From an uncultured Bacillota bacterium (GTDB lineage Bacteria; Sysuimicrobiota; Sysuimicrobiia; Sysuimicrobiales; Segetimicrobiaceae), in contig CAWDRG010000009.1 of NCBI GenBank assembly GCA_963804645.1, positions 1,340,628-1,404,627 of the forward strand: a DNA stretch of 64,000 nt. The letters run 5' to 3'. The notes under the pieces were generated by a model. That model was not told the DNA's origin. It saw only the letters and a program-made list of their open reading frames with translations, and made no database searches. How positions within the stretch are numbered: the first letter of the stretch is position 1; every line of letters starts with the position of its first letter. The position numbers and the translations under genes are program-made. Positions 33,523 through 58,458 of this stretch are shown in pieces.

Positions 33523-33608
33523 GCCGGGATGGCGGAATCTGGCAGACGCGCACGTTTGAGGGGCGTGTGGGGAAACCCGTGGGGGTTCAAATCCCCCTCC
33601 CGGCACCA
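33523..33608 (+). tRNA. tRNA-Leu(GAG)
   Basis: Acceptor GCCGGGA/TCCCGGC plus ACCA; anticodon arm CACGT-TTGAGGG-GCGTG; long variable arm; T-loop GTTCAAATC. Confidence 0.97.
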
Positions 33609-33885
33609 GTTCTACTCACCACATCCGCATTCAGATTGAGTAAGCGTGCCGTGCATCTCACCCGGCGGGCCCGCACCGCGAGACGGACGACCGGAAGGTG
33701 TTGGTGAAGCGGCGGCGAACGTTCCTGCCTACCACGGCTTCAGGCAGGGGCAGAATCTTAGTTTGCGGCCGATTTCGTCGCGGGCTGGTGCAGTTGTGAG
33801 TGGCCTGCGACAGAATCCGCGAGACGACAATCGCGGGGTACAAAGCGGGCCATCAGAGATCGTGAATTTGAAGGGGGACCATGTC

Positions 33886-34431
33886 GTGCAACGTATTCAG
33901 CCGGTCGATGAACAGAGCGTTTCGCCGATCGTCCAACAGGCGTTTGCGGATGCGGCGCGGCGTGGCGCCCCCAACCCCACGTTGTTGCGAATTCTCGCAC
34001 GCCACCCCGTGGCGCTGAATGCATTTTACGCTGGATGGCAGTCCACGTTCTACGATGGGATCGTTGAACATACGCTGAAAGAACTGATGCGCGTGCGGAT
34101 GGCGCGGCTCAGGAACTGTGGTTATTGAAGCGGAGTCCGCTCTGCCGTGGCAGAGCACATGGGACTCACCGACGCTAAGATTGAAGCGACCTGGGATCCT
34201 GGCGATCCGATTTTTACACCCCGCGAGCGGGCCGCGCTCGAAATGGCATCGTTATTCACTGAAGACTATCGTGCGATCACAGATCAACACGTGCAACGCT
34301 GGAAGGAGTGGTTCAGCGACGAGGAACTGATCGAGCTTGGAGCATTCATGGCCTTGGCCGATGGATTCGGCAAGCTCGTGGAAATGTTGGGGTTGGGTCA
34401 ATACGATCAGCACTGCGAATACGAGATATAG
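33886..34431 (+). CDS. AhpD/carboxymuconolactone decarboxylase-like protein, probable selenoprotein (C-G-Y-U, TGA at 34126-34128)
   Basis: Two ORF halves in one frame; LKELMRVRMARLRNCGY-TGA matches the AhpD CxxC; second half has FTPRERAAL and FSDEELIELG; hairpin 11 nt after the TGA. Confidence 0.78.
34139..34156 (+). promoter_or_regulatory. Candidate bacterial SECIS hairpin
   Basis: GCTCTGC-CGTG-GCAGAGC perfect stem starting at the 11th nt after the in-frame TGA. Confidence 0.55.
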
Positions 34432-34529
34432 GGACGTCGGCCATTCGCCGATGGTCGAGTCACCGGCGAAAATCGTGGAGTTGATCAGGAGGTCCTGGGC
34501 CCGGCGCTCTGCCGCGCATAGTTGCTCAA

Positions 34530-34946
34530 TTAGGCTACAAAATCGGCGCTTGGCAAATTGTCCAAATGCGAAATCCCCCTCCCGGCACCATCGATCACGA
34601 ACATTCCCGCGAGATTGCCGGTAATCCGAGCCACGAGATGCTTCTCCTCCCGGCGTAGGACAGTCGTGTCCACAGCCAGGGACAGCATCTGCCGAGCGTC
34701 GTCCACGTTCGTTGACAGTGTAGCCCGCAGATCCCATAAATACCGCTCCATGACTGTTTGAACCGAGATAACCGGTGCCCGGCTGGCTTTGTGTCGCGCA
34801 CAGCTTGCTCCGTAGCTGCCATGCGTCGTTCGGCGTCCTCCAGCACCTGTTTGGTGGCGTGATGATACCAGATCGAATTGGATTGTCGCGCCATCGATCA
34901 GAATCTGCGACTCGTGCCGCGGTTGCGCGACAACGCAGTGCAGCAC
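34530..34946 (-). pseudogene. Large serine recombinase C-terminal remnant (frameshifted)
   Basis: Coiled coil TKQVLEDAERRMAA then ERYLWDLRATL...ARQML...GNLAG..GAGRGIS; homologous to other remnants; frame crosses att copy 1. Confidence 0.7.
34571..34590 (+). repeat. tRNA-Leu 3'-end copy 1 (att-like)
   Basis: AAATCCCCCTCCCGGCACCA, 20/20 identical to 33589-33608. Confidence 0.95.
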
Positions 34947-35283
34947 GCGGAGGGCGCGGTGACAGAGGGCGATTGGAAAGTCTCGTGCTTCTAGTGTCCT
35001 GAGTCGAAAGTTGCTTCCATAATTCTGAGTCCTGAGGCGCTGATAATACTGACGAATCTCACCGGACCATGTTAGCGGATCTCTAACTCAGGACACTAGG
35101 TGGTCTTGCTGCCGTTGCTCATGGGACTACCTAATCGTAGTGGCCGGGCCGACAGGCAACTCCGGCAGTGCGCCGGAAGGAGCGCCTGCCCGGTTTCTCG
35201 AAGGTCCGATCCATCTCGATTTCCGCTGGGGTGCTGTCATACGAATGCAGTTCCGACCGTCGTTCAATACGGGACGGAATTTC

Positions 35284-36129
35284 ATGGCTCGCTGTCGCGA
35301 TGTCGGCAGGGGCAGCGTTCGCCGAACCGTATCGCGTGTCGCGGTTGCGATCGCTTGCTGTTGCCTATCCGCACTGCAGCCGTCTTCTGCTGCTCAGTTC
35401 CAGCCTCCGTCGGTGACCGGTGCCATAAAGCCATTCTTCTACGGTCGAGCGTCCATCGCAGGCCTGCCGGCGGACAATGGAGTCTTCGTCGATGCGGTTA
35501 TCGTGCAGGGCGTGAACGACTACACGGTCTGCGGCCAAACGACGGTCGGCGCGAACATGACGTTGTTCAATAGCAGCAGCACCGGCCCGGGCGCGTACAC
35601 GTTGGTAATCGACACGACGAAACCAGAGTGCCTTAATAAGAAGGCCCAGTATACTTTCTTTATCAATTCGGTCCGCGCCCGCGCGGTGACCAATCCGGGC
35701 TTTACCGTGAACGGCGGAACATTCCACGTCGACTTAGATGCGGCCGAAGTCGCGTTGGTGACAAACGGGGCGGCCGGCGCGCCCGGCGCCATAAACAAGA
35801 ATGCACCGGTAGTCTATTTTTACGGAATCGTTCAAAATCCCCGCGGCGTTGTCCGCACGGGCACCCAGGTCACTGTGAAAACTAAGGACGGTACGTGTAG
35901 CGACGTCGGACGGACCCGAACTCTGATCTGGGAGCCGAAAGCCAAGGGCTATGGGCGAATCATGGAACAGGGGTTCTACTTCGTCACTATTGAGGGCAGT
36001 GCCTGCGAAAATCGCATGGGAACATACGTGTTCGACGTCGCCGGCCAGTTGAGCAGGACGATTCAGTATACTACGCCGCCGTACGCGAATGGCTTTCGCG
36101 TCGATCTGAATGCGCCCGGTGCCCCTTAG
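35284..36129 (+). CDS. Secreted hypothetical protein with two similar beta-rich domains
   Basis: Signal-peptide-like N-terminus; internal duplication FFYG...C...GAY / YFYG...C...GFY; start codon uncertain. Confidence 0.65.
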   Translation: MARCRDVGRGSVRRTVSRVAVAIACCCLSALQPSSAAQFQPPSVTGAIKPFFYGRASIAGLPADNGVFVDAVIVQGVNDYTVCGQTTVGANMTLFNSSSTGPGAYTLVIDTTKPECLNKKAQYTFFINSVRARAVTNPGFTVNGGTFHVDLDAAEVALVTNGAAGAPGAINKNAPVVYFYGIVQNPRGVVRTGTQVTVKTKDGTCSDVGRTRTLIWEPKAKGYGRIMEQGFYFVTIEGSACENRMGTYVFDVAGQLSRTIQYTTPPYANGFRVDLNAPGAP

Positions 36130-36275
36130 CGCTTCACATAACCTCGTGCCCGGGAAGAATTTCTAGCGGGACCTGCAGCGCCACCATTCCGCGCAACCGG
36201 ATACGCTCAAGGAGGAGTCACGCGAAGCAACGGCGGCCGGACGACCCTACGTGCATCACGTGACGCGCGGGCCTG

Positions 36276-36590
36276 CTACCAGATCGTGCCGGCGGTCATC
36301 GGCCAGTACACCAATGACGAAATCCCCCTCCCGGCACCAGCTCTATCGGTCAAGAGTCCGCGGTCGTCGATCTGTAGCACGCCAGCCAGATTGCCGTAGA
36401 AGTACGCCACGTGGGATGTTCCCTCCCGTTGCTGCACGATGCGATCGACCGCGCGCGCCAGCAGTCGGCGCGCCTTCTCGGTGTTCGTCTCCAGCGTCTC
36501 ACGGAGATCTCGGAGAAACCGCTCCGCCGAGACGGTAAATGGCTCGATGTCCGTTGGCTTTCGAGCTGCGGCGAGCGCCGCCTCCAGGCA
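36276..36590 (-). pseudogene. Large serine recombinase C-terminal remnant
   Basis: ERFLRDLRETL...ARRLLARAVDRIV...GNLAGVL...GAGRGIS; frame crosses att copy 2. Confidence 0.7.
36320..36339 (+). repeat. tRNA-Leu 3'-end copy 2 (att-like)
   Basis: 20/20 match to the tRNA 3' end. Confidence 0.95.
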
Positions 36591-36639
36591 TGAAAAAATC
36601 TGATATGTGACACAAGGGAACGTCCACGGGGGATGCGGG

Positions 36640-37524
36640 ATGCGGCGATCTATGGCTTGGGTGAGTATCATGATCGTGAGTTGCGCCCTGGGTATCACGC
36701 TCCAAGCCCAGGCAGTTTCATTGAAGTTTGCCACGCTCGATGCCCCGGGCGCTCACACGACCTTTGCCCAAGGAATCACCCCCGCCGGGCAGATCGTGGG
36801 CCGGTTCTGGGACGCGCGCGACAGAGCACACGGGTTTTTCCGCACGTCATCGGGCACGTTCACTACGATCGATGTCCCGGGTCCGACAGACACCGAAGCC
36901 TACGGGGTCAACGCCGCTGGGCAGATTGTGGGCCGGTTCTGGGACGCATCCAGCGCCGTCAGCCCGTATCACGGCTTTCTGCGCATCTCTGGGCGCGTAA
37001 TTGTCACGATCGATAACCCGGGCGCGACAAAGACCGAAGCCTACGGGATCAACGACGCCGGGCAGATCGTGGGCGACTTTCAGGACGCACGCAGCGAGTG
37101 GCATGGCTTTTTGCGCACCTCAGTGGGCATGGTCACCACGATCGATGTCCCTGGTGCGACGGACACGTATGCCTCTGGAATCAACGACGCCGGGCAGATC
37201 GTGGGCGACTTCCAGGACGCACGCGGCATTCACGGTTTTTTGCGCACCTCGTCTGGCACCTTCACGAAGATCGATGTCCCGGGCGCGACGTTGACCAATG
37301 CCGATGGAATCAACGCCACCGGTCGAATCGTGGGTCTCTTCAAGGGAGCAGGCCCCGGGCAACATGCCTTCATCCGCACCTCCGGCGGCACCTTCACCAC
37401 GATCGATGTCCCGGGCGCGAGGGAGACCCATGCCAATGGAATCAACGCCGACGGGCAGATCGTCGGCGACTTCTGGGACGCGCGCGGCAAGATCCGTGGC
37501 TATGTCGCTACTTCAACCCCATGA
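36640..37524 (+). CDS. Secreted HAF-repeat-like (probable beta-propeller) protein
   Basis: Signal peptide plus six repeats of about 44 aa, TIDVPGA..T.A.GIN.AGQIVG.F.DA...HGF.R. Confidence 0.82.
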   Translation: MRRSMAWVSIMIVSCALGITLQAQAVSLKFATLDAPGAHTTFAQGITPAGQIVGRFWDARDRAHGFFRTSSGTFTTIDVPGPTDTEAYGVNAAGQIVGRFWDASSAVSPYHGFLRISGRVIVTIDNPGATKTEAYGINDAGQIVGDFQDARSEWHGFLRTSVGMVTTIDVPGATDTYASGINDAGQIVGDFQDARGIHGFLRTSSGTFTKIDVPGATLTNADGINATGRIVGLFKGAGPGQHAFIRTSGGTFTTIDVPGARETHANGINADGQIVGDFWDARGKIRGYVATSTP

Positions 37525-37726
37525 ATTCGTGGATTGCTGCTCCATGAGTGATGCGGGCGCTTCCTGGTGGTTCCACCGTTTCGTGGTTGCCGTGCGGCCT
37601 TGCCCGTCTCCCTGCTGTCGACCGGCCTCTTTCTGCCATGGCGGAATCATCCGGCAGTGTGGTCGGAAGCCGGACGATGTGCTTATGCCACGAATCCAGT
37701 CGCGACGGGTTCTTCGGAAACCGGAG

Positions 37727-37743
37727 AATCCCCCTCCCACCAG
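37727..37743 (+). repeat. Degenerate tRNA-Leu 3'-end copy 3
   Basis: AATCCCCCTCCC-ACCAG equals the core with GGC deleted; abuts a recombinase remnant. Confidence 0.7.
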
Positions 37744-37880
37744 TCAGCCGTTCCCGCAGACGGTTGGCCCTCGGTTCTTGTGGAACGAGCAGATGTACCG
37801 GCCGCTACCTCGGGCCGTATAGTGGGCACCGCACTCAGCGCATCGCAGGAGACCCGAGAACAAGTAGGCATGGCGGGTGG
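37744..37880 (-). pseudogene. Large serine recombinase zinc-ribbon remnant
   Basis: YLFSGLLRCAECGAHY...RYICSFHKNRGPTVCGN, the typical LSR zinc beta-ribbon pattern. Confidence 0.82.
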
Positions 37881-38155
37881 CCCCGCCGCCTGACCAGGCT
37901 TCTGACGTTCCGAGCACGAGTCTCACGTGTACCTCCCAGGCCCGGGATCGGAGCATCTCGGTGAAGGAAGCAGGCAGGAGAACGGAGAGTTGCATGAGAA
38001 CTCGCCGCGCAAGTAGGCGGTCCTGATTTGATCGGCTCGGAAGGACCGGTTGCGCCGAGGCTACTTGTGATGGAAAGCGGGGACCCTTCCACGGAAACTA
38101 GTCACGGTGATTTGCCTGGTGCACAATGGAAGTTCCTGAAGACGGAGGTTGAAGC

Positions 38156-38761
38156 ATGCAGGCGATGCGGAGTTCGATAACACGGTGGGGGAGTGCGAGT
38201 GGAGCGGCTGTGGTGCTGATGCTTTCGCTCGCAGCGACGGCGCTGGCAGTTTCGATCCTTCTGCCACCGGGCGGGAGTGTCGCTGTTCCCGCGACGACCG
38301 CCGCAACGGAGCCCAGCTTGGCGGGAGGCACGCTCCACGACGCACTGCTACCGTTCACGATCATGAGTGCATCAGGAGCGGTGGTGTGTGCGGGGCAGCT
38401 GCAAGATCGGGTTGTGCGATCGAACACCACGGGTCAGATCGATTTCTATTACCGGATCCGTGCGACCACAGGCCCCGGCGCCATTGGTCGAACATCTACG
38501 GCGAGCTTTGGCGGCCTACCACTCCGTATCGGCTACAGGACCGATGGACTGGGCACGGTGGCACCAAAGGTGGCCGCGCGCAGCGCCGCACCCGGGGCGC
38601 TAATAACGTTTAGTTTTGATCCCGCACTATCATGTGCGCGACATCAAGAGTCGCGGTTCATCCTGATCAGGACGCCCGCGAAGAACTTTGTCGCCGGAGG
38701 CAGCACAAGGGTGATCGCGACGACAGGCGCGCTCGTGTCGCTGCCAACTGTCCAGCCGTAA
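38156..38761 (+). CDS. Secreted hypothetical protein
   Basis: Signal-peptide-like hydrophobic N-terminus; beta-rich body (TGQIDFYYRI, YRTDGLG). Confidence 0.65.
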   Translation: MQAMRSSITRWGSASGAAVVLMLSLAATALAVSILLPPGGSVAVPATTAATEPSLAGGTLHDALLPFTIMSASGAVVCAGQLQDRVVRSNTTGQIDFYYRIRATTGPGAIGRTSTASFGGLPLRIGYRTDGLGTVAPKVAARSAAPGALITFSFDPALSCARHQESRFILIRTPAKNFVAGGSTRVIATTGALVSLPTVQP

Positions 38762-39214
38762 AGTCAGCGCAAGCAGCGTCGCACCAGATCACTGTCGTGG
38801 AAAGGCGACCAACAGCAGGTTCCAGCATTTGTCCGAGCGGTTTGAGGGGCGTTGGAGAAGCCGAAGACGACCCTGGTAACGTTCCAGACGGGACGGCCCA
38901 ATCTCTCCTCGTCCGACTGCGTCTGCCTGTCTCCTTCCCGTTTTCGGAATGTCGATAGTATCTTCCCGTCGCTCAGCGTGAGAATGAGACTACTTTATTT
39001 GCGTCTCTCATCCGGGCGAGAATGCCTCGGCATTGCCCTGCCGCAAACGTAAAAGGGGGGGCTGACTCGAGGAACCATGCTGGCTACTGCCTCTGCCTTT
39101 TCTATCCACGCCCCCCAACTATTTCTCAACAAACCGGAACGATCTAATTGGACGTTCCAAATAAACGCCACCCAACACCATTCGCTTTCGATCTCGTCCG
39201 GACAGAACGCCCCA

Positions 39215-39360
39215 TTAGGCTAGTCGTACCTGTGCGTGTCTCTCAAATAAAATTCCTCTCCCGGCACCAGCACCATCGGTCAGCGTCCCACTGCTTGTGT
39301 TGTTACTTATCCTGATCCTGAGCGCGCCCGCAAGACTCCCATGCATGTAGCTGGCCGAGA
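39215..39360 (-). pseudogene. Short recombinase C-terminal remnant
   Basis: HGSLAGALRI...DGAGAGRGILFERHAQVRLA, equivalent to the GNLAG...GAGRGI motif. Confidence 0.55.
39250..39269 (+). repeat. tRNA-Leu 3'-end copy 4 (att-like)
   Basis: AAATTCCTCTCCCGGCACCA, 18/20. Confidence 0.9.
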
Positions 39361-39654
39361 GGGCGGAATCTTTCACAAGACTAAAGGCTGAATTGTCCAA
39401 TGACGTTCTGAGCAGGACCCTGAGAGGAGCCAACGGAAGATGGCTTTCAGAAGATCGTGTCCGCAAAGCATCAATAGCCTGAACTTGGCGAGAAGCACGC
39501 AACGTTAAAATTGCTAACGGGCTCGCACGCGAGACATCGACAGTTAGCGTTTCCTGCGGGCACCGGCGGAGGACTCGCGTTGACGAATGCTCGACTTGTA
39601 TGATGGCTTAGCTGCGGGGCTTCCTTCCTCACAGCGCATTTTAGGTGGTGTAAC

Positions 39655-40725
39655 ATGGCGTCGGAAAACGCTTCGTTGCGCACCTCCAAGAAGTGGTTGA
39701 GATCACCCTTACAATTTGCGGCAGCGGGCCTTATTTGGTCGGCCCTTAACGATGGTGTTGCGGTGGCATTTTCGTATTTGAACGGTATGCATGGGAAGTT
39801 GTTTGCTTTGAATGGAGTCTACAATCAGTATCTAGTGCTGGTTCATGTTGTCGTAGCTTACATTGTGTTCCCCTCGGTTTGGGCCTTCTTTGCCTGGACG
39901 GACCAAGCTCCTCAACGGATGCTGTGCGATCTGAGGAGGGATGGGGTATTTGCAGAAGAGCCTGGATGTACAGAAGAGGACAGGGAAGTATACTCGGGCT
40001 TCAATCAAAGCTCCTGATCTTTCTTGTACGCCGTGGGTATCCTTTTCATTCTAGCGGGAGCATACTTCCTCTGGGCTAGCCCGCCGACGCACGAACCCGG
40101 CATTGTATATAATATTCGGAGCCATCTCCCGAGTACTCTTCTGCTGTGGTTCATGCTGTGGCTGATTCTTTGCAGACTCGTGGAAGCCATCTTGGCGCTC
40201 GACAAGATCCTTCGGACCCGGAAGGTGTGCCTACGCCCCTTTCATCCTGACAATGTGGGCGGATTTGGAGCGCTGGAGCGATATGCTCGAGGATTGTTGC
40301 TCTTCTTTGGATTCGTATTCTTCGGGCTCTTGATAGATTCCCTGCAGACAGTATCAATCAGGCGGGAATCGCATGACGTGATTCTTCTAGTTTACATCGG
40401 GGCGTTTGTCGTTCTGACTCCTGCCCTCTTTTGGGGAACCTTGTGGCCCAGCCACACCGCGATGATTCGGGAACGAGACCGACTCCTTCGCTCGCTCATT
40501 CCTAATGACTGGCAACGAACTTCGTTCGGGCACGTCAACGACAGCGCGTCGACGAAACGGCAGCTTGAGCAGGCCGACGCGGCACGAAAACTGCATGATA
40601 CTGTTATGGATTTCCCCGTGTGGCCGTACCATTTTGGGCCGGACGTGCTGGTTCCGTTGACCGAGAGTTTCGCCGCGGCGGCGATCGCGCACCTCGTGGT
40701 GAACATCTTCTTCCACGCCAAGTAA
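39655..40725 (+). pseudogene. Low-GC multi-TM membrane protein interrupted by in-frame TGA at 40015-40017
   Basis: ORFs 39655-40017 and 40024-40725 share one frame; PFHPDNVGGFG and FPVWP motifs. Confidence 0.6.
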
Positions 40726-40752
40726 TGGATGGATTGGGCCCGTGGATAATAA

Positions 40753-42102
40753 GGTTCATCCGGCATTTTCGGGAATTCCAGGAAACGCGGCCATGATCTT
40801 CAGGAAGAAGTAGCCATCGTCTCGGTAGCCGTACCCCATGCGCTTGAGGACCTTGATCTTGTTGTTGATGCCCTCGAGGAGGCTGGTGTGTAACGGATAG
40901 CGACAGTGCGCGATGATCCCGGGGAGCCGCATCTTGAGATGGCGGGCAAACGTCTTGAGGGGTTCAATGCGACTGCGGATGGCACGGTGGTACCAGTCGG
41001 TGAAGAAGCGGGTGGCGGCGCCAGGATAGGTATAGTCCCACATCTGCTTGAGATCATCCTTCAGCACGTAGACGGCCGCAAGCCGCCGGTTGGCTGCCAA
41101 GAGGTCCTGGAGTCGTACGCGATCCTCCGGTTTGACGTTCTCACGATTGCGCAAGAGGAGCCACCGCGCGCCTTTGATCACCTTGCGGGCTGCTTTGTCG
41201 CGCCGCACGCGATTGGCTTCGTCCACGCGCACCCGGTCAATGACTTCGCGCCCGTACTTGGCGACCACGTGGAAGAGGTCATAGACAAGGACCGCGTGCG
41301 GACAATGGGCGCGCACTTCTTCTTCGTAGGCCGTGTTCATATCCATCACCACCGCCTGCAGACGCTTGCAGCCCTCGCCACCTAACAGCGCGAAGAAAGG
41401 ACGGACGTCGTCGCGACTCCGGCCTTCGCCGACCCAGAGCACGCGTTTGCGCCGGGGTTCGACCACCACCGTGGCGTAGCGGTGGCCCTTTCGCAGGGCG
41501 AATTCATCCATCGCAATCGTTGTCACGTTGGACAGGTCCACCGGGAGCAACTGCTCTGCCAACGCGGCCACGTCCAGGTTTTTCACGGTGTCCCAGTCGA
41601 GGCCGTAGAACTCTGCCACGTGCTTCACCGGCAGGATGCGGCAGAGCCGGACCACGCTCTCCGCCAGGCGCGTGGTCACCCGGTCCCAGGCCGACAGCCA
41701 GGACAGGGCCTCCATTTTGGGGCCGCACGTGGGACAGGCAACGCGGTAGCGCGGCACCCATACGTGAGTCTCGGCGTCGAGCAGCGGCAGATCCCGGATG
41801 CAGCGGACCACCATCTCATGCGCCTTCGCCGTCTCTTGGCCGCACCCGGAGCACCGGAAGGTCCGCTTCTCGCGGGCCAGCGTGATCTCCACCCGCGGTT
41901 TGCCGGCGCCCGTCGTTGGTTCGATGCGCTCCACCAGCTTCACCCGATAGCATTCCCACCCGACCAGCACATTGGTAGACTGATCATGAGGCAAGGTGCT
42001 CCCCCTTCCCTGAAGCGCCGTGTTCGCAGCACGTGCTCAAGGATAGGGGTGTGGTACCTTGCCTTCAACTTATACGGCTATCCCGGTTTTGCCTGAAGAA
42101 CC
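40753..42102 (-). mobile_element. ISL3-family insertion sequence, apparently intact
   Basis: Imperfect IRs GGTTCATCCGGCA.../...TGCCTGAAGAACC; 8-bp target duplication GATAATAA at 40745-40752 and 42103-42110. Confidence 0.93.
40756..41994 (-). CDS. ISL3-family transposase
   Basis: Zn finger CSGCG...CPTCG, IAMDEFALRKGHRY, VVMDM, YDLFHVV, EGINNKIKVLKRMGYGYR. Confidence 0.95.
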   Translation of the reverse strand: MPHDQSTNVLVGWECYRVKLVERIEPTTGAGKPRVEITLAREKRTFRCSGCGQETAKAHEMVVRCIRDLPLLDAETHVWVPRYRVACPTCGPKMEALSWLSAWDRVTTRLAESVVRLCRILPVKHVAEFYGLDWDTVKNLDVAALAEQLLPVDLSNVTTIAMDEFALRKGHRYATVVVEPRRKRVLWVGEGRSRDDVRPFFALLGGEGCKRLQAVVMDMNTAYEEEVRAHCPHAVLVYDLFHVVAKYGREVIDRVRVDEANRVRRDKAARKVIKGARWLLLRNRENVKPEDRVRLQDLLAANRRLAAVYVLKDDLKQMWDYTYPGAATRFFTDWYHRAIRSRIEPLKTFARHLKMRLPGIIAHCRYPLHTSLLEGINNKIKVLKRMGYGYRDDGYFFLKIMAAFPGIPENAG

Positions 42103-42487
42103 GATAATAAACCTTCACGATCCATCCAGGACCGCGCGGACCGTGTCTGAGATAGGTAAGCAATCTCCTGGATCCGGGCTCCGGCCCCCGGCGCTACGGG
42201 AATGGACGGTAGTGTTGCCTCTCACAACTCCGATCCCGTTCTTCTATACCCATCCATCCGAGATGCACGATGTCACTCGCAGATGCATTCGCCTGCAACG
42301 GGGTGTCTGACTACCGGGCCGACCGCAAAATGCCGCCTTGGGTGATCTCGGCCCCGTAGCTATGTTCGAGGGCGAGTCGAGCAGAGTTGTGGGCCTGCGA
42401 CAAGGCCCCTGTGCTTATTCAAGCAGATCGGGATTTCGGCCCACCCTCCCGATCCCAGGCTACGCGCACACGTGCGTGTCTCTCAAA

Positions 42488-44713: not shown

Positions 44714-44719
44714 CCCGGG

Positions 44720-46547: not shown

Positions 46548-46549
46548 CC

Positions 46550-48869: not shown

Positions 48870-49245
48870 GATTCTCCTCCTCCTCCCAAGCTGAAAACAT
48901 CTCTTCTTTGAGAAAGGGCTCTACCGTTGAAGGAGAGCGGCTGCCATTTCAGGGGTGAACGGGTCGGCCTCTGGGTCAGGTGGATTCCGTCTGAAGCTGC
49001 ATACATCCTTCACACGGATGAGGTGGTAGCGTCAACACGCCCGCGAAAATCGCAACAACGAAGAAGGCTGCTGAGGTGCGGAGCTCAGCGGGCCCTCCAA
49101 CAGACAGCTGATTGCGATACTTTCGTGAGGACCGCCCTCCGGTTCGATTCCCGAGGGCAAGGAGCTTCCTTCGCCGAACAATCCCGTCATTTCGTCGTAA
49201 GTGACACTGGCAGTTCCATATCTCTGCGCGGTAGGAGGACGTGCC

Positions 49246-49701: not shown

Positions 49702-49866
49702 TCTCGCTCAGATCGGGCCGCGTCGAGGACCGGTTGCACGGATAACTGCGAACTGGATCAGTAAGAAACAACGCTGCAGGTCATCCATTCTGCAGCTAGG
49801 GCGGCTTCGAATCGACGCGCGGGGCGCCGTGTCGAGGACGTGCCCGGCGCACGTGTGAGGATGGTC

Positions 49867-50778: not shown

Positions 50779-51661
50779 AGACGAGATCCACGGTGAGATT
50801 GACTGCGAGGAACACGGCGGCAGCCACGATCGTCGCGCCCTCCACCACGGGGAAATCGCGGCCCAGCACCGCTTGGACGGCCAGGCGTCCCATGCCCGGC
50901 CACGCGAAGATCGACTCCACGACGAGAGCGCCGCCGAGCATCTGCCCGAAACTCAATCCCAGGACGGTAAGCACCGGAAGCGCCGCGTTGCGCAGGGCGT
51001 GTTTCAGCAGCACCACGGGGCCGGCCAGCCCCTTCGCGCGGCCTGTTCGAATGTAGTCTTGCTCGAGGACCTCGAGCAGGCTCGCGCGTGTGAGCCGGGT
51101 GACCTGTGCCGCGTAGAAGCCGCCAAGCACGAACGCGGGCATGATGAGATGACCGAGTCCGCCGTACCCCGACACCGGAAACCAACCAAGCTTGACACCG
51201 AAGACGATGATGAGCAGCAGGCCGAGCCAAAAGCTTGGCATGCTGCTCCCGAACAGCGCCAGGGTCATGGCGGCCGAGTCGAGACCCGAACCGCGCCGTA
51301 CCGCCGCCACGATCCCCAGCGTCACGCCCAGCACGACGGTCACCGCCAGTGAGGAGAGCGCTAACTCGAATGTGGCCCCGATGTGCTCCCCGATGACCGT
51401 CGTCACCGGCAGGCCTTGATAGTAGGAATAGCCGAGGTCGCCGTGGGCAAGGCGCGCGACGAACCGGCCGTACTGGACCCAGAGCGGTTGATCGAGACCG
51501 TAGGCGTGCCGGATCGCGTCCATGTCCTGCTGGGTCGCATCTTGCGAGACGAGCAGTGCCGCTGGATCCCCCGTGACGTGGAGCAGCACGAAGACGATGG
51601 TGACCACACCAAGCATGGCGGTCAGCGAGAGCGCCAGACGGCGAATCAGGTAAGCGGTCAC
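50735..51661 (-). CDS. ABC peptide permease (DppB-like)
   Basis: GDLGYS, DYIRTGRAKGL, HALRNA, VESIFAWPGMG. Confidence 0.92.
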   Translation of the reverse strand: MTAYLIRRLALSLTAMLGVVTIVFVLLHVTGDPAALLVSQDATQQDMDAIRHAYGLDQPLWVQYGRFVARLAHGDLGYSYYQGLPVTTVIGEHIGATFELALSSLAVTVVLGVTLGIVAAVRRGSGLDSAAMTLALFGSSMPSFWLGLLLIIVFGVKLGWFPVSGYGGLGHLIMPAFVLGGFYAAQVTRLTRASLLEVLEQDYIRTGRAKGLAGPVVLLKHALRNAALPVLTVLGLSFGQMLGGALVVESIFAWPGMGRLAVQAVLGRDFPVVEGATIVAAAVFLAVNLTVDLVYGWVDPRLRGIAGA

Positions 51662-51697
51662 GGCGGACGGAGGCGCGCGATCACGGCATCGCTCGGC

Positions 51698-53251
51698 TCA
51701 GCGGCTCCAGGACGCGTCGAATGCCGGAATTTCCAGGTCCGGCCGCGGGGTGAAGTTCAGGTTGTTGCTCATCCCGGTCGCGTTGGGGGCGCTGAACAGC
51801 GTGAGGGCCGGGGCCTGGTCCTTGTACATCACCTGCAGGCGCTTGGAGACGTCCCGCATTTGCGCTTCGTTCGGAGCCGACTGCGCCTCCTCGATGAGCT
51901 GGTTGAAGGGGTCGTAGCCCGGCCGCCACTGGGACCATTCGCCGGGTGAGTAGAACGCGCGCAACGGGATGATGTAGCTGATCCCAAAGAAATCGGTGAA
52001 CCGCGTGAACCAGCCGTCCTCGGGCAGCTTCCGAGCTAGCACCGACTGCAGCTGCACGCCGATTTCCGAAATGTCCACGCGCGTGCGGACGCCGACCTGG
52101 TTCAGCTGGCTGGCGACCGCCTGCACGATGTCGCGGTCCCCGGGATAGGTGCCGACCGTCCCGCTGATGCTGAAGTCGAATCCGTTGGAGTAGCCCGCCT
52201 CGCGGAGCAGCGCGCGCGCCTTGTTCGGGTCGTAGGTGAACGGCTGGACCGACGGATCGCAGGCCTCCATCACCGGGGTACAAAACGTCGCGATCGGCGC
52301 GCCAACGTTGTGCAAAACGCTCGACACGATCGCTTGGCGGTCGATAGCGTAGTTCAACGCTTCTCGGACGCGGGGATCGGCGAGCGGCTTGTCCTTGGTG
52401 ATATTGACGAGGTTGTAAATGACGAAGAAGACGCTCAGGCTCTTGCCGACCACGAGCTTTGTCCTCGGCGACGTGGTGAGCGCGCTGAACAGCTCAGGCG
52501 GTAGCAGATTGGCCAATTGTACGGAGCCCGCCAGCAATTCCGCGACCCTCGGGGCGTCGGTCGGGATGACTCGAAAGACGACGTGGCTGATCTTCGGCCG
52601 GCCGCCCCAGTAGTCGGGGTTCGCCTCGAGCTCCATGCGGTCGTCCTTCACCCAACTGACAAAGCGGTAGGGGCCGGTCCCCACAGGGTGGCGCGCCAGC
52701 GCGTCGGGGCCGTTCTGCTTCAGATAGCCTGGGGGCACGATCATCCCGTAGTACCCGAGGAACCGCGGCAACTCAGGCCAGGGCTGCGAGGTGGCGATCC
52801 GCAGTGTGTTTTCGTCCACCACCGTCACCGACTTGATCAGGCGCAAATCCCCGGCGCCGGGCCAGTGCGTCGCCGGATCGAGCATCCGGTCGAACGTGAA
52901 CTTGACGGCGTCGGCGTTGAAGGGCTCGCCGTCCTGGAACTTCACACCCTGCCGCAGTTTGAACTCCCATGTAGTGGGATCAACAGTCCGCCAGGAGAGC
53001 GCCAGCCCGGGGTGCAGGTTCAGGTCGGCATCTCGGCGCACTAGCGTGTCGTAGACATTGACAAGGACGTTTACCGTTGCGGTCCCGGTGCTCTTTCCGG
53101 GGTCGGCCGTGTCCGGGTCGGCGCTCTGCGCCACCACCAGTGTCGGCGGCGTCTGCGCCTGGACCCGGAACGCGAGGCTTGAGCCGAGCGCGAGCACGAG
53201 CGCCAGAGCGAGTGCGCAGGCGGCGACCTGCCGACCTCTGCCGTGTATCAT
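51698..53251 (-). CDS. ABC peptide substrate-binding protein (family 5)
   Basis: Signal peptide; LRQGVKFQDG, PVGTGPY, DPRVREALNYAID; RBS GGGAGG before ATG 53251. Confidence 0.92.
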   Translation of the reverse strand: MIHGRGRQVAACALALALVLALGSSLAFRVQAQTPPTLVVAQSADPDTADPGKSTGTATVNVLVNVYDTLVRRDADLNLHPGLALSWRTVDPTTWEFKLRQGVKFQDGEPFNADAVKFTFDRMLDPATHWPGAGDLRLIKSVTVVDENTLRIATSQPWPELPRFLGYYGMIVPPGYLKQNGPDALARHPVGTGPYRFVSWVKDDRMELEANPDYWGGRPKISHVVFRVIPTDAPRVAELLAGSVQLANLLPPELFSALTTSPRTKLVVGKSLSVFFVIYNLVNITKDKPLADPRVREALNYAIDRQAIVSSVLHNVGAPIATFCTPVMEACDPSVQPFTYDPNKARALLREAGYSNGFDFSISGTVGTYPGDRDIVQAVASQLNQVGVRTRVDISEIGVQLQSVLARKLPEDGWFTRFTDFFGISYIIPLRAFYSPGEWSQWRPGYDPFNQLIEEAQSAPNEAQMRDVSKRLQVMYKDQAPALTLFSAPNATGMSNNLNFTPRPDLEIPAFDASWSR

Positions 53252-53586
53252 TGTCCGCACCTCCCGTTCATTCTCCTGGCCACCTTCGCGAGCGCAACTC
53301 CAGGCGGTGCCCACCGGCCGCCCAACAATGACCAATCACGCGGCGGGCACAGGAACGTTTCTTTGTGACCTCGTCATTTGCTCTGACCTCCCCCCAAGGA
53401 CGTCAGAGTGCGGGTAGGGAGCCGTTCGCGGTCAACCGGGTGCCTCCTTTTCGCCAACCAGCACGCTGAGCGCCGCGGTGGACTATGCCCTCATTTCGAG
53501 TACCCGTGCGATCCGGGGCCTGCGGCGGAGGTTGGCCGGCGGGAGCCAGCCCACTTGTGCCCGGTGAGACGGTACGATACGAGACG

Positions 53587-53600
53587 CCCTCCCGGCACCA
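53587..53600 (+). repeat. tRNA-Leu 3'-end copy 6 (partial)
   Basis: CCCTCCCGGCACCA, 14/14. Confidence 0.75.
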
Positions 53601-53630
53601 GGAATCACAGGAATCGGGCGTTCCTTTCTG

Positions 53631-54069
53631 TTAGTCGTTGCCTTCGTCTGTGAGACTCCGCGCCCACTCTACAATGCGTTGAGCTTGTTTGGCGCTCACC
53701 TGCGCGTCCTCGGGGCGGCACCGCCGCGCTTCGTATTCGACCGTATTTTTCTATCAATCAGTGCTTCAAGTTGCGTCGCAGCGCGCCGGGCGCCTTCATC
53801 ATCCGGCAGCAACTGACGAACGAGCCGAGGCTGGTCGGCATGAGTTTGGCTGGCCGAGCGAACCCCGGCGGATGCGACACATACGGCATCCGCAGCGGCG
53901 ATGGCAGTTGAATCGCCAGCGGGGCGGCAGTGTCCCAGCGTTCCGCCGAGAGAGCCTCGAGTGCTTCAGCTAGGTGTTGCTCTGCTTTTCTCAGATAGTT
54001 GGCACCTTGGGCCCGGGTTACTGTGCGGACGGGAACGGTCAGAGATTTTGATGGGCGTTTTTTATCCAC
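53631..54069 (-). pseudogene. HEPN-domain protein with 1-bp deletion near 53907
   Basis: YLRKAEQHLAEA...W.TAA.LAI, then shifted AIAAADAVC...H...LIDRKNTVEYE...IVEWAR. Confidence 0.7.
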
Positions 54070-54270
54070 GGCCGAGCACCTCGGCGAGGCTGGAACTGGC
54101 GAGGACTCGGCCCTGTGCGATGATTTCGCGGATCAGAGTATCTCGTCTGCGGAGGCGGCGCCGTACCTCATCTCGGCGAAGTACCAGGAGCGAGACAGGC
54201 CTTCCAAACCGTTCACTCATTTTGCCGCGGGTCTCATCGATTGTGTCCTGAAACCCCGGTGTACGATCTA
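54062..54270 (-). pseudogene. C-terminal fragment of an MNT-like nucleotidyltransferase
   Basis: ERFGRPVSLLVL...LIREIIAQGRVL; stop overlaps HEPN start; catalytic N-terminal half not seen. Confidence 0.55.
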
Positions 54271-54358
54271 AGCTGTTTGAACTTGCAACTACCAGCAGAT
54301 CTACGTCGTACCGACGCGAAAGCTGACCGACAGTCGACGACGAGCCCTGTGAAATTAA

Positions 54359-54745
54359 TTATGGTCGCACAATGGCTGCAAGAAGAATCCGCATGAATGT
54401 GAAATAAGCGAAGATCCACCAAAGAACTGCGGTCAATTGGAGCACGCTCCCCCTGAGGATTGGAAAGCGCCCCAACACCTGTTGGCGATATCGGGTCGCG
54501 ACGACGTAACTAATGATCACAGGCGGAATGATGAGCGGCAACACGAGTACGAGAAGGTCCCTGATCACTACCGGACCTAGCCCCGAAAGGCCGTGCTGTA
54601 CAGCGTCGTTCAGTTGTGCTTGCTGGCTCGAATGCATGCGACCGTCCCAATTTGGTTCGTCAATATCCGATCCCCGTACACCGACTATCATGCCCACCGC
54701 CCCAAAGAGAGCGACCAAGTTGACGGCTTGTTTCCAGTTCGGCAA
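54359..54745 (-). CDS. Hypothetical membrane protein
   Basis: Three hydrophobic segments; lower GC; no recognised motif. Confidence 0.4.
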   Translation of the reverse strand: MPNWKQAVNLVALFGAVGMIVGVRGSDIDEPNWDGRMHSSQQAQLNDAVQHGLSGLGPVVIRDLLVLVLPLIIPPVIISYVVATRYRQQVLGRFPILRGSVLQLTAVLWWIFAYFTFMRILLAAIVRP

Positions 54746-54991
54746 CCTTGGGGCTTTCTATTCGACACAATGACATACAAGGAAGGAATGCAAGTGAGAA
54801 ACTGGAAAGCCCGGCTTAGGAATAAAGGAAGTGACGGGTCGACGGCGAATCTCATATTATCCCAGCGTTTACGAATCGGCGGAGCTCGGGGTGGGGAGTT
54901 CGACACCGCCCGACGATTATCGTCGTGTGGGGGCACGTACGCGCGTGGAAGACAACGATTGAACCATTCGAAATGCAGAGGAGAGTGGACC

Positions 54992-55465
54992 ATGAGTCAG
55001 CAGGAGACCATGCGACAGCAACTGGAGAACAGCCACGGGGCCATGTTAGCCGCATCGGAGGGCATGTCGGCGGACGAGATGGCCCGCATTCTGGCCCCGG
55101 GTTTGGCGCCGGTGATCTGGCAGTTCGGCCACCTCGCGACCGCAGAAGCAGGGATCGGCGGGTTTGCCGGCGGAAAATTCGCGCCGCCCAAGGAGTTCTC
55201 CGAGTTGTTCGGACAGGGCACCGGGACGGGGCCCGCGCGCTACCCCGCGTTCGGCCAGGTCAAGGAGGCGTTTGACGGCGCCAACCAGGCGCTCGTCAAG
55301 ATCGCCCTCGAGGCCGATTACGAGACTCCGCTGGACACGCCGCTGAGCAAGTATTTCGGGACCGTCGGGGGGATGTTGACGTTTCTCCTCTACCATCGGG
55401 GCTGGCACATGGGGAAAGTGACCACGCTGCGCACGATGCTCGGAAAAGCCAGGCTGTTTGGGTAG
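54992..55465 (+). CDS. DinB family protein
   Basis: WQFGHLA..E and HRGWHMG His triad; RBS GAGGAG. Confidence 0.82.
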   Translation: MSQQETMRQQLENSHGAMLAASEGMSADEMARILAPGLAPVIWQFGHLATAEAGIGGFAGGKFAPPKEFSELFGQGTGTGPARYPAFGQVKEAFDGANQALVKIALEADYETPLDTPLSKYFGTVGGMLTFLLYHRGWHMGKVTTLRTMLGKARLFG

Positions 55466-55660
55466 ACGGTTGTCCGGGGGCCCGGAGGGCCTCGCGGCGC
55501 CCCGGGCCGCCATTGTCGTCACACCCTAGCCACGCTGGCCAGCGCGTCGGGCGTCGTGACAATATGCCCATCGGTGCCAATCCGGAAACGCTGGCGCTGA
55601 TGCGGGGATGGCCGAGCGCGCGCTGACGGGGTAGGGGGCGAAACTACCGAGATCGGCCGC

Positions 55661-56476
55661 ATGGTGGCGCTCCCGACACGCCGTGCGCTCGGTCCCGCAG
55701 CGTTATCCCCGACGATCTCTGAGCCCAACTCGAGCCGCTCCTCCCTCCCGAAAAGCCACCCGGGACTCCCGGGCGTACGGTGGTACCCTTCCGCCAGGTC
55801 GTGGACGGCATCCTGAATGTGCTCCGCACGGGCTGTCAATGGAAGGCGTTGCCCAGGGAATATGGGTCCGGCTCCACATGCCACCGGCGCTTTCAGGCAT
55901 GGGTCGACGCCGGCGTCTTCGAGCGGCTGTGGGGGTACGCTGCTGGCCCGGTACGACGAACTCCGAGGGATCCAGTGGCGCTGGCAATCGCTGGACAGCA
56001 CCATGGTCAAGGCACCGTTGGGGGGCTCACACAGGCCCGAATCCGACGGCAAGGTCGGGACGAAGCGCCACACGCTGACCGATCAACGCGGCGCCCCGCT
56101 CGCCATCGTGGTCACCGGGGCCAACTGCCATGACATGAAAGCGGCGACGGCCACCCTGGATAGCCTCCCTATCCAGCGGCCCCGGCCGACGCCGGAGCAT
56201 CCGCAGCATCTGTGCCTCGACAAAGGGTACGACCACCCGGAGATCGAGGTGGCCGTGCGGAAGCGGCACTACGTCCCCCATATGCGTCATCGCGGTGAAT
56301 GCCTCCCGAGCCGACGGCGGCATCCGGCGCGGCGCAGGGTCGTTGAACGCACGGGCGCCTGGCACAACCGGTTCCGGAAACTCCTCGTCCGCTACGAAAA
56401 GCGGATGGAAGATTACCGAGGGTTGGTGCATTTCGCATGTGCTCTCATCGTCTACCGGCTAACGGCCTTGGGGTAG
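55661..56476 (+). pseudogene. IS5-family transposase pseudogene
   Basis: GILNVLRTGCQWKALP, STCHRRFQAW, LCLDKGYD, VVERT..W.NRFRKL..RYEK; premature TGA at 55720 and frameshift in G-run near 55931. Confidence 0.88.
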
Positions 56477-56483
56477 GTGCTTA

Positions 56484-56867
56484 TCACCGGTCGACGATCT
56501 TCCAGTAGGAGTCCTTCCTGACGATCTTGCCGTTACGGAATTCGAAGTGATCGCAACCGCGGACCTCTACGCGCTGGCCGTCCGGCGTCGTGCCCGTAAG
56601 TAGCCACTCGGAGACGCCTTTCGTTCCGCATACCCAGTGGCTGTCCTGCCCATAGTGGACGTCCGGAAGGCCCGCAAACCGGCTGGCGAGTCCCTCGCGG
56701 ACCTGGTCCTTTCCGACAAGCCGCCGTCCCCACGCCTGAGGACCACGCGGCATCTCCAGGACGCAGTCGTCCGCAAAGAACGCCATGATCGCACCCAGGT
56801 CGTGGCGATTGAACGCTTCGAGAATTCGCTCCAGGGTGTCGACAGTTACCTCGTCGCCGTGCGTCAT
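56484..56867 (-). CDS. SnoaL/NTF2-like protein
   Basis: AFNRHD..AIM.FF..DC, RF.GLPDVHY, VRGCD, KDSYWK. Confidence 0.88.
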   Translation of the reverse strand: MTHGDEVTVDTLERILEAFNRHDLGAIMAFFADDCVLEMPRGPQAWGRRLVGKDQVREGLASRFAGLPDVHYGQDSHWVCGTKGVSEWLLTGTTPDGQRVEVRGCDHFEFRNGKIVRKDSYWKIVDR

Positions 56868-57197
56868 GTGTCGCTGATTCCATGGTTGTCGCTGGATTAC
56901 CTATGCGGGATGAGAAGGCAACCGTGGGCGACCCATGGGGGTCGGTGAAGCAAACACAGTAAAGGCGGTGCACCGGCGGCCCCTGGAGGAGCTAGCGAAG
57001 CTCGGTCTCCCAATGAACGAAGGGAAGAGCCGATTGGTGGATCTGGTCGGTCGTTGACCCCCTGTGAGGTTACGCACAGTTTCCCGATTCGTACCGTGCT
57101 ACGCTTTGCCTAAGAGATTGTCCTCACAAGTTTCATGGCGAGGAAGAATCACGCTCAATAGAGTCGAGCGTATCCGAGATGAGAGGCGGAAACGCCA

Positions 57198-57347
57198 GTG
57201 TTATGGACGGTGTTCGCGGTCCTGGTCGTATTGTGGCTGTTCGGGTTCGGTATGCATGTCGGGGGCAACCTGATTCACGTGCTGCTGGTGTTCGCGTTGA
57301 TTGTGCTGGTCTTCAACCTGTTTAGTGGTCGTCGGGCGCTGACGTAG
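57198..57347 (+). CDS. lmo0937/DUF5670-like small membrane protein (49 aa, absent from the ORF track)
   Basis: MLWTVFAVLVVLWLFGFGMHVGGNLIHVLLVFALIVLVFNLFSGRR family pattern. Confidence 0.85.
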   Translation: MLWTVFAVLVVLWLFGFGMHVGGNLIHVLLVFALIVLVFNLFSGRRALT

Positions 57348-57576
57348 GCAACTTGATGAAGGGAATGGAATGATCTCGGTCGGACCATGCGCTCCGGTAG
57401 GTGCTGGGCAACAACAAGAGGCGTTTGACATCATGAACAAAGATCAAGTTGGCGGGAAGCCGGACGGTCTAAGACGTGGTCGTGCCGCCGCTCGCCACCA
57501 TGGCCGGTGTATTGTCGGCCATGCGTGAGAGCGTCAACTGGATGCGACTGAAACGCGACACAAGGGAGGATGGAAC

Positions 57577-57909
57577 ATGAGCGAACGAGGGAGTTTTGCG
57601 GTGGGGCTGATATTGGGTGGAGCGGTTGGCGTCGCGCTCGGTATGCTGGTCGCGCCGGTGCCCGGGCGTGAGACGCGCGAAAAGCTGCGGCGCAAAGGTG
57701 GGCAGCTACGGGACCGCGCGCGCGAGCACGCTGCCTCCGTGGCGGACGATGTAGCCGACCGGCTTCGGGTCAACGCCGACGATGTGATGACGCGCGTGCG
57801 CTCGATGGCGGGCGACGTGATCGACCGCGGACGGTCGGTCGTCGAGGAGCGAGCTGGGCATCTGCCCGACGCGTTCGAGTCCGGAAAGGACACGGTGCTC
57901 GGCAGGTAG
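57577..57909 (+). CDS. YtxH-like general stress protein
   Basis: F..GLILGGAVG..LG.L.AP..G.ETREKL; RBS GGGAGG. Confidence 0.85.
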   Translation: MSERGSFAVGLILGGAVGVALGMLVAPVPGRETREKLRRKGGQLRDRAREHAASVADDVADRLRVNADDVMTRVRSMAGDVIDRGRSVVEERAGHLPDAFESGKDTVLGR

Positions 57910-58118
57910 GGCGATCCGCGACGCACTGACAATTCCGGATGTTGAGATGCCGGGGCTGACCGCGTCGTGGCCGCAAAGGCAAGTAAATGGTCATCCCGCA
58001 ACCGGGCGAATACGACCAATGCCACAAGATAAACGATGCTACCGGATCCTGTCTGTCGTGTATCGACTAGTGTCGGGGACGCCCACGGTGGGCGCGGGTA
58101 CATCTTACTGAACACGGG

Positions 58119-58138
58119 AACTCCCCCTCCCGGCACCA
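58119..58138 (+). repeat. tRNA-Leu 3'-end copy 7 (att-like)
   Basis: AACTCCCCCTCCCGGCACCA, 19/20. Confidence 0.9.
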
Positions 58139-58458
58139 CCGCTTCCGAAGCTCTCATACAAGTTCAGCAGCCCCGTGACGACTGACGTGCAGGCACGCAC
58201 CGGCGGGTCTGGGCTGCAGGAAAACGGTGCGGAGCTCTCCAATACAAGACATGGAAACTCCGGCTCTAACGGTGCGAACCGACGCATTCTGGATGGAGCC
58301 TGGGGGTCCAGAAATATTGCCCGCCCTCGAGATCAAGCAACCTCGGTTCTTATCTAGCACGCGCTGGCAGACCTGATTCTCGGGCCTGCCAGTGTGCTAG
58401 CTGGAATATTTGATGGCGAACGGGTAGCCGAGGCTCCGACTACGAGGGAGGTGTAGAC

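Follow-up and report, generated by a model that had tools for sequence, protein, structure and literature searches.

Elements that integrate by means of large serine recombinases (LSRs) can stack at the end of a single gene. The available text on the Dehalococcoides ssrA islands (McMurdie et al. 2011, PMC3146451) describes tandem islands on the downstream side of a small-RNA gene present in one copy; a 20-bp direct repeat taken from the gene's 3' end delimits each island, and a serine recombinase of ~540 amino acids (aa) is encoded on the reverse strand next to attL. Many of these islands have no integration module; in the authors' reading, they are cis-mobilisable remnants. For the staphylococcal cassette chromosome (SCC), the excerpted text of PMC13739063 states that large serine recombinases (either CcrAB or CcrC) integrate at a conserved gene 3' end, that repeated integration leads to tandem elements parted by internal att sites, and that att-bounded elements without recombinase genes exist, the outermost being taken as the oldest. 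Here we describe a stack at tRNA-Leu(GAG) of an uncultured bacterium from a high-GC Bacillota lineage (source assembly G000; other G numbers denote genomes of relatives). It lies in a stretch of 64,000 bp (G000:C9:1340628-1404627, hereafter the window, to which all plain coordinates refer) that terminates at the contig end. The unpublished genome G030 enters one tally only, and nothing claimed here depends on it. The stack comprises at least nine units and is probably a tandem series of decayed LSR integrative elements at the tRNA gene's 3' end, built by serial integration and then reduced by internal deletion. The stacking pattern is already known at other genes; the tRNA-Leu(GAG) stack is a new example of it and not an integron.

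As far as the ssrA islands are described in that text, the stack shares their architecture: repeats of a gene 3' end, a gene-proximal position of the LSR, and recombinase-less islands in a row. The target is tRNA-Leu(GAG) rather than tmRNA (ssrA), and the host belongs to an uncultured high-GC Bacillota lineage and not to Dehalococcoides. The module, as found in relatives, consists of an LSR and a DnaB-like helicase, compared with DsiB/DsiA/RecF/ParB/Mom in Dehalococcoides, and set against the ssrA islands the units are mostly 1-2 kb long with recombinase stumps. SCC differs, in the passages at hand, by targeting a protein gene (rlmH), by using two recombinases (CcrA and CcrB) or CcrC, and by elements of tens of kb; the SCC recombinase gene does not sit at the element end reading into the site, unlike in the tRNA-Leu(GAG) family.

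Accretion of the ICESt1 type, which involves integrative and conjugative, integrative and mobilisable, and cis-mobilisable elements (ICEs, IMEs and CIMEs), follows a similar course of integration, decay to an att-flanked remnant and arrival of a new element alongside, but uses tyrosine integrases (available part of PMC5704250). The same part states that known serine-recombinase IMEs disrupt dispensable protein genes and are not tRNA-rebuilding. In Mycobacterium abscessus prophages, likewise according to the text available, serine integrases with 5-8-bp cores disrupt protein genes and tyrosine integrases use tRNA sites (PMC8092301). These statements in PMC8092301 and PMC5704250 make a tRNA-rebuilding LSR unusual in print, and a full-text literature search found no description of LSR integration into a tRNA 3' end. 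An initial annotation of the window had held that stacks usually arise via tyrosine integrases; this overlooks the serine-recombinase stacks covered in the available parts of PMC3146451 and PMC13739063.

Core repeats and recombinase stumps in the window

The tRNA-Leu(GAG) gene (33523-33608) is the sole tRNA that ARAGORN calls in the window and is single-copy among the 51 tRNAs of the assembly. A scan of 32-64 kb with Rfam at gathering thresholds returned 0 matches, the ARAGORN-called tRNA likewise being unlisted. The last 20 bases of the gene (33589-33608) form the attachment core. Searching with this 20-mer at up to three mismatches gave six same-strand matches in the window versus 0.01 expected by chance, and none of 100 shuffles reached six. 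With a copy that is without GGC and a 14-base remnant, the window holds eight core copies, the tRNA's own end included, plus one junction from which the core is missing (Table 1). Genome-wide, the 20-mer search gave eight matches, six of them at the tRNA-Leu(GAG) locus; the others are C20:6133 (one mismatch) and C17:797630 (three mismatches, other strand). The exact 14-mer occurs seven times in the genome, six times at the locus and once on contig C20. The mismatch-tolerant search and the shuffles thus confirmed the repeat positions in the initial annotation, its interval sizes were reproduced (including ~1.88 kb for 39270-42509 with ISL3 removed), and dispersal of the 20-mer, which it had named as a warning sign, was not found: the matches are confined to the locus and the C20 copy, plus the single C17 match. 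GC content is ~0.70 left of the tRNA and 0.53-0.66 over 34-60 kb.

The minus-strand frame through the complement of each core reads GAGRGI; at the true tRNA, the T-loop contributes the codon that follows, a TGA. For scoring the stumps that follow, we used a profile built only from the LSR C-termini of nine relatives, run against all 1647 six-frame pieces of the window. It matched 34533-35087 (E 1.1e-25), 36279-36752 (E 7e-24) and 42491-42655 (E 9.3e-17), and also the frameshifted upstream part of the first of these stumps (E 5.5e-5) and 48238-48492 (E 1.5e-3). The tRNA-adjacent relic and the stumps at 39250 and 58119 scored weakly (Table 1); because these three scores include six repeat-encoded codons, those relics are only suggestive. 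Using full-length relatives as tblastn queries, we placed the surviving residues at ~428-563 in unit 2, ~456-566 in unit 3 and ~515-563 in unit 6. A zinc-ribbon fragment (37747-38097; Pfam E 4.4e-7) aligned by tblastn to residues 327-387 of the full LSR (7e-11) and is fused directly onto the damaged core at 37727-37742. Both approaches agree with the earlier proposal that the stumps are LSR C-termini.

The stumps are irregular in length, from ~15 to 136 codons, and one fragment is internal; in units 2-7 they lie at the tRNA-proximal end. When all open frames of at least 75 aa in 33.6-64 kb were scanned with Pfam, the zinc-ribbon fragment was the sole recombinase domain. A full LSR open reading frame (ORF), with Resolvase, Recombinase and zinc-ribbon domains, is absent from the window but present in relatives, so that the window, as first annotated, contains no intact recombinase, only this fragment and C-terminal stumps. 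Against 1.84 billion representative proteins the stump profile gave 153 matches at E <=1e-3, mostly short proteins, a ratio of short to long that is no measure of stump frequency in a library with one representative per 50% cluster. Two longer matches (539 and 463 aa) align near their C-terminal ends.

Intact elements in relatives and the attachment site

We surveyed the 23 genomes of the family with a profile made from four aligned window stumps. Matches were found in 16 of them; outside G000 (22 other genomes), 9 of 39 matches lay in open frames of 494-639 codons. Seven such frames were analysed with Pfam: five carry Resolvase, Recombinase and Zn_ribbon_recom, and the other two are without the N-terminal domain, being truncated or cut by a contig end. 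Full-length frames that abut tRNA-Leu(GAG) in relatives span 555-606 codons, and in G012, G003 and G001 the frame ends GAGRGI directly against the tRNA. These last six codons complement the tRNA 3' end, and the T-loop supplies the stop of the LSR frame. Among the 11 tRNA-Leu(GAG) loci of relatives that were read, 9 have the tRNA directly followed by an LSR-derived frame that ends GAGRGI; the exceptions are G016, with a weak relic only, and G011, with none. The presence of cognate full-length LSRs against the same tRNA supports the suggestion that the repeats are att copies left by a tRNA-Leu(GAG)-specific LSR family.

The intact elements are 18-27 kb long (~18 kb from the tRNA to the next core in G012; exact cores 27 kb apart in G013). 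In both genomes a DnaB-like helicase gene comes after the LSR gene; the two share one orientation, towards the tRNA, and the accessory genes encode oxidoreductases, a STAND-type regulator, SpoIIE/STAS proteins and glycosyltransferases. No phage structural or conjugation domains were found among the 35 ORFs scanned, which had been picked by codon-position GC from 196 frames of at least 90 aa. Among ORFs picked in the same way, a 233-aa Resolvase-domain ORF lies in the G013 element far from its LSR gene, and no second small serine recombinase was seen among the 10 ORFs of G012. These features fit units that are shrunken elements, as had been suggested. LSR relatives with at least 50% identity came only from metagenome-assembled genome (MAG) records titled Bacillota bacterium or bacterium, and those with 25-39% identity from records of Nioella, Acidobacteria, Bryobacterales and others. 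A sister LSR (553-codon frame) abuts tRNA-Leu(CAA) in G017 (L046, G017:C5), and a broken LSR gene abuts tRNA-Ala(CGC) in G000 (C15:441563-442453); tRNA-end targeting in the lineage is therefore not restricted to Leu(GAG).

Tyrosine integrases are the usual users of tRNA 3' ends with 20-76-bp common cores (available part of PMC8092301), and one could ask whether they made the boundaries here, the likeness of the stumps to serine recombinases being incidental. We consider this very improbable. Open frames of at least 75 aa in 33.6-64 kb contain no tyrosine recombinase domain, the stump homology is strong, and in every intact relative the LSR frame passes through the core to the T-loop TGA. This explanation is already contradicted by these data.

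Alignment of 30-odd core copies with their flanks revealed two conserved arms. The left arm is of the type GGCC.n.TA....TAAyGnCn; the right arm starts nnnYTA and is formed by the LSR gene's end. Internal junctions are composed like an attP, with the core between a left and a right arm, and the tRNA junction consists of the tRNA half, core and right arm. LSR att sites usually share a core of 2-12 bp, compared with the 20 bp shared at these boundaries. At 11 of the 12 junctions read (window and loci L041-L054), the LSR frame continues beyond GAGRGI for another 10-16 codons, and at the 42490 copy it stops at once; 7 of the 12 frames end in a hydrophobic residue plus Ala, e.g. LVA, AVA or FVA. Integration beside the tRNA would therefore alter the recombinase C-terminus. 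This may affect stability or may be mere DNA-level conservation of the arm.

The initial annotation had missed a junction without a core, and likewise the coincidence of contig end and window end. At 48354-48417 a left arm is joined straight to the LSR codons RLMAEVRGNL. The 15-base core motif of this 19-base left-arm relic (48354-48372) has no other exact match in the genome than the one in the left arm beside the 42490 copy; the C20 copy's left arm carries it with one mismatch. This joint of left arm and LSR codons divides an 11-kb interval into two units and shows that some deletions remove cores. At the other end, the last 160 bases of the window equal C20:5772-5931. The core copy C20:6133 follows ~200 bases further on, with the same left-arm type, and then a HAF-repeat gene like that of unit 3. 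From this overlap and the core copy there, we conclude that the stack probably continues beyond the contig end and past the window.

The core at 53587 belongs to a variant, GACG(G/C)CCTCCCGGCACCA, that has counterparts in G015 (L051:10341, with a canonical left arm) and G012 (L041:7932). It may be a distinct site variant rather than a product of decay.

In intact elements of relatives, the attachment site is located within the LSR gene's 3' end and has 20 bases in common with the tRNA, so that integration rebuilds the tRNA and leaves the recombinase frame ending GAGRGI at the T-loop TGA. For the stack, the course of events that we infer is as follows. Further elements of the family, with recombinases ~37-54% identical in the stump region, would integrate into the occupied site, each adding a new boundary copy. 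One or more deletions inside each element would then remove the recombinase N-terminus, the helicase and most cargo; a stump of the recombinase 3' end, a few genes from the distal part and the core-bearing right arm would remain. In some cases the deletion would also have taken away the core (at 48.36 kb) or, at 37.74 kb, the recombinase C-terminus, and an ISL3 element and a miniature inverted-repeat transposable element (MITE) would have inserted into the remnants later.

Units, cargo and neighbouring genes

Table 1. Core copies, units and their contents in the tRNA-Leu(GAG) stack
Feature	Position	Strand	Size and remarks	Evidence
Exact core copies	33589, 34571, 36320	+	0 mismatches	20-mer search
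Imperfect core copies	39250, 42490, 58119	+	2, 1 and 1 mismatches	20-mer search
Core remnant	53587-53600		right 14 bases exact	exact 14-mer search
Core copy without GGC	37727-37742			
Unit 1	33609-34590		982 bp; exact 20/20 core at 34571-34590
LSR relic of unit 1	33609-33652	-	~15 codons, weak	relatives-only profile, E 0.01
Candidate ORF of unit 1	33640-34125	+
Candidate ORF of unit 1	33856-34251	-
Unit 2	34591-36339		1749 bp; exact core at 36320-36339
LSR stump of unit 2	34591-34957	-	~136 codons, residues 428-563; frameshift near 34780
MITE in unit 2	34991-35095		105 bp
Cargo gene of unit 2	ends at 36126	+	called product 238 aa
Unit 3	36340-37742		~1.4 kb; core without GGC at 37727-37742
LSR stump of unit 3	36340-36602	-	~95 codons	tblastn, profile
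HAF-repeat protein gene, unit 3	36604-37521	+		TIGR02913, E 6.7e-28
Unit 4	37743-39269		~1.5 kb; core at 39250-39269, 2 mismatches
Internal LSR fragment of unit 4	37743-37899	-	zinc ribbon, residues 327-387
ORF of unit 4	38153-38758	+	no family
Unit 5	39270-42509		3240 bp, ~1.88 kb minus ISL3; core at 42490-42509, 1 mismatch
LSR stump of unit 5	39270-39421	-	weak	profile, E 0.24
ORFs of unit 5	39604-40014, 40018-40722	+
ISL3-family insertion, unit 5	40745-42102		transposase on - strand
Unit 6	42510-48372		~5.9 kb; ends in left-arm relic 48354-48372, core deleted
LSR stump of unit 6	42510-42643	-	~50 codons
ABC transporter genes, unit 6	43070-46544	+	peptide/nickel type; binding protein and two permeases
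PEP-CTERM-like ORF, unit 6	46968-47696	-
Unit 7	48373-53600		~5.2 kb; 14-base core remnant at 53587-53600
LSR relic of unit 7	within 48316-48417	-	motif RLMAEVRGNL	profile, E 1.5e-3
SnoaL-like gene, unit 7	48426-48920	-
MaoC dehydratase gene, unit 7	49201-49698	+
ABC transporter genes, unit 7	49870-53335	-	permeases and binding protein
Unit 8	53601-58138		~4.5 kb; stump not found; core at 58119-58138, 1 mismatch
DinB_2 gene, unit 8	54581-55462	+
IS4/IS5-family transposase, unit 8	55723-56473	+	in two frames
SnoaL_2 gene, unit 8	56487-56900	-
YtxH gene, unit 8	57529-57906	+
Unit 9	58139-64000		open at contig end
LSR relic of unit 9	58139-58200	-	weak	profile, E 0.66
Transporter and esterase genes, unit 9	58414-63746	+	binding-protein, esterase and two permease genes

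Cores flank each of units 1-5 on both sides, and a recombinase is missing from all five, i.e. these units show the att ends without integration genes that define CIMEs. Searches of the candidate cargo ORFs with Pfam, NCBIfam and PADLOC gave 0 matches to defence systems, and most ORFs of the small units were without a family. The families named for the cargo are HAF repeat, SnoaL, MaoC, DinB_2, YtxH and ABC transporter parts only.

The locus had been called integron-like, and there is some likeness in the row of small units, often with a single gene, inserted at one anchored place. The candidate cargo ORFs of units 1-5 are listed, under the gene-capture explanation discussed below, as all lying on the plus strand (Table 1 includes a minus-strand candidate in unit 1), and one orientation shared by the ORFs of the first five units would be a further likeness. 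The term does not hold otherwise. Unlike integrons, the locus has no IntI tyrosine recombinase (33.6-64 kb) and no common promoter, and its units carry recombinase debris and have irregular boundaries set by deletion end points. Instead of attC hairpin sites, for which no folding search was made, its boundaries are tRNA-end repeats with LSR arms.

The operons of units 6-9 have counterparts in the genus that are 72-79% identical, the same range as for the core gene upstream of the tRNA. We sought the native right flank by synteny and did not recover it; the flanks of the tRNA locus and of the transporter operons in relatives map to scattered G000 contigs. Units 6-9 may accordingly be foreign or may be old vertical DNA.

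Several repeated sequences were noted within the units. The HAF-repeat genes of unit 3 and of C20 (C20:6323-7210) each contain three internal 221-base repeats and lie beside core copies on opposite strands. A 1.28-kb segment with the DinB_2 gene (54352-55631) is duplicated at C20:3235-4515 with 99% identity. The ISL3-family insertion has an 8-base target duplication, copies at C15:179267 and C5:304678 that are 98-99% identical, and an 80% copy that opens C20. The 105-bp segment in unit 2 has perfect 14-bp terminal inverted repeats and ~90%-identical copies at C9:514062, at C2:216301 and in G002; it is a recently inserted MITE, since contigs from two public runs skip it exactly and so represent the MITE-free form. 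Upstream of the stack, a pyridoxal phosphate (PLP)-dependent decarboxylase gene on the minus strand (32025-33460) separates the tRNA from the upstream core gene. In relatives the tRNA follows that core gene after ~70-250 bases, and the decarboxylase gene is on other contigs.

Past insertions and possible present activity

Assembled contigs from four public metagenome runs (depth ~3-5) were aligned to 33000-52900. They run across the junctions 34571, 36320 and 39250 without change. The ISL3-free form is represented by one contig in which 40744 is connected to 42103, with eight bases shared, and a run from another study contains identical short pieces of units 1, 2, 4, 6 and 7. These data bear on the possibility that the stack is an assembly artefact, in which strain variants were chimerically joined at short repeats. 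The genome is indeed in 22 contigs with 4.2% estimated contamination, and the contigs of many relatives break at tRNA-Leu(GAG). On the other hand, the bridged junctions show no differences (one run may be the source sample, so the contigs are not all independent), the pieces from the other study are identical, and a 20-base repeat is shorter than the usual assembly words. An artefact is therefore highly unlikely.

The assembly contains no recognisable cognate LSR. Matches to PF07508 and PF13408 were limited to the window fragment and to members of other LSR families on C4, C11 and C15, and tblastn against G000 with five cognate LSRs found at best the broken copy at tRNA-Ala, at 37% identity, and then genes with 27% identity. 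Among the other families, C11:13000-15147 and C15:239314-241455 are near-identical LSR-like frames of 714-716 codons from a different family than the stumps, and C4:170673 and C15:460092 are frames of 556 and 601 codons, near-identical except at their C-terminal ends. These frames look like repeated mobile elements elsewhere in G000. The irregular stumps, the internal fragment, the lost core and the failure to find a cognate LSR in the assembly speak for decay and against a cassette format by design. As judged from their sequences, the units in G000 look like inert, recombinase-less remnants of the CIME type, and the locus is most likely an inert record of past insertions.

Several observations weigh against this interpretation. 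With an assembly that is 96.8% complete and an array that is cut off by the end of its contig, a cognate LSR could be unassembled. In the family, short units prevail: 9 of the 15 same-contig core spacings in relatives are <=3.2 kb, a count biased by the shortness of MAG contigs. Around the tRNA, G016 and G034 share 92-94% identity and have tRNA-proximal units that are unrelated, and unit pieces with 85-95% identity turn up in other array contexts in G015, G016 and G033; both findings point to continuing turnover in the family. The core sites themselves may still be usable. Two internal cores are exact (20/20), and in the imperfect copies at 39250, 42490, 58119, C20:6133 and 53587 all mismatches fall in core positions 1-8, the right 12 bases being perfect in all five. 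The 53587 copy was picked for its exact right part; without it, 5 of 5 mismatches lie in positions 1-8 (~0.01 by chance). The 37727 copy, with GGC missing in its right part, is an exception. Finally, canonical LSRs do not recombine attP with hybrid sites, and integration into an occupied site is accordingly a conjectural step for the tRNA-Leu(GAG) family. Any route to the stack needs an LSR that uses a hybrid site, and SCC elements, as described in the available part of PMC13739063, show that such use is possible.

The asymmetry of core mismatches is absent in relatives, and the crossover point was therefore not inferred from the mismatches in G000. An estimate from the dyad centre that placed the crossover at core positions 9-10 was dropped, as relatives have mismatches at position 9 and in the right half.

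Elsewhere in the family, the 19-mer is present in 19 of 23 genomes, with 61 matches compared with 1 for the reversed control. The state of decay varies between genomes and includes C-terminal stumps, N-terminal remnants and an internal deletion.

Could the locus instead be an active platform for gene capture? The tRNA-proximal site would then resemble attI, and LSRs of incoming elements would insert, excise and reshuffle units without a recombinase in trans. We regard such a platform as unlikely, though worth weighing. Every internal junction has the make-up of attP, the two proximal cores are exact, and building the stack required recombination with an occupied site. One genome apparently contains two intact elements, the first beside the tRNA (G001:C19), the second following a left arm (G001:C83). 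The predominance of short units in the family, the recurrence of unit pieces in different contexts and the single orientation listed for the ORFs of units 1-5 would also fit. Against capture stand the cognate LSR that was not found in the G000 assembly, the irregular stump lengths and break points, and the loss of one core. No unit occurs twice in G000, and apart from stump homology and paralogous genes, units 1-5 do not occur in the six other genus genomes. None of the joints listed from the contigs of the four runs connects one core copy to another; this is weak evidence, as five joints are unlisted and contigs drop rare forms. It is conceivable but doubtful that tRNA-Leu(GAG) LSRs recombine attP with the occupied site, yielding products with the same site types as the substrates. 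In that case, and with similarly little confidence on our part, the internal junctions might act like attC, and one-gene units might be inserted, excised and passed on in trans.

We thus favour a decayed tandem stack over a capture platform. Short cores within protein genes are what is usually described for serine integrases, and the locus extends them by a family that targets a tRNA. In this family the core measures 20 bases and restores the tRNA, and the recombinase gene terminates within its own attachment site. If these recombinases do accept occupied sites, the attP x attB rule would be relaxed, which would matter for LSR directionality and for integration tools. For the uncultured high-GC Bacillota family itself, the tRNA-Leu(GAG) site is nearly always occupied, and tandem accretion with recombinase-less remnants shapes this hot spot.

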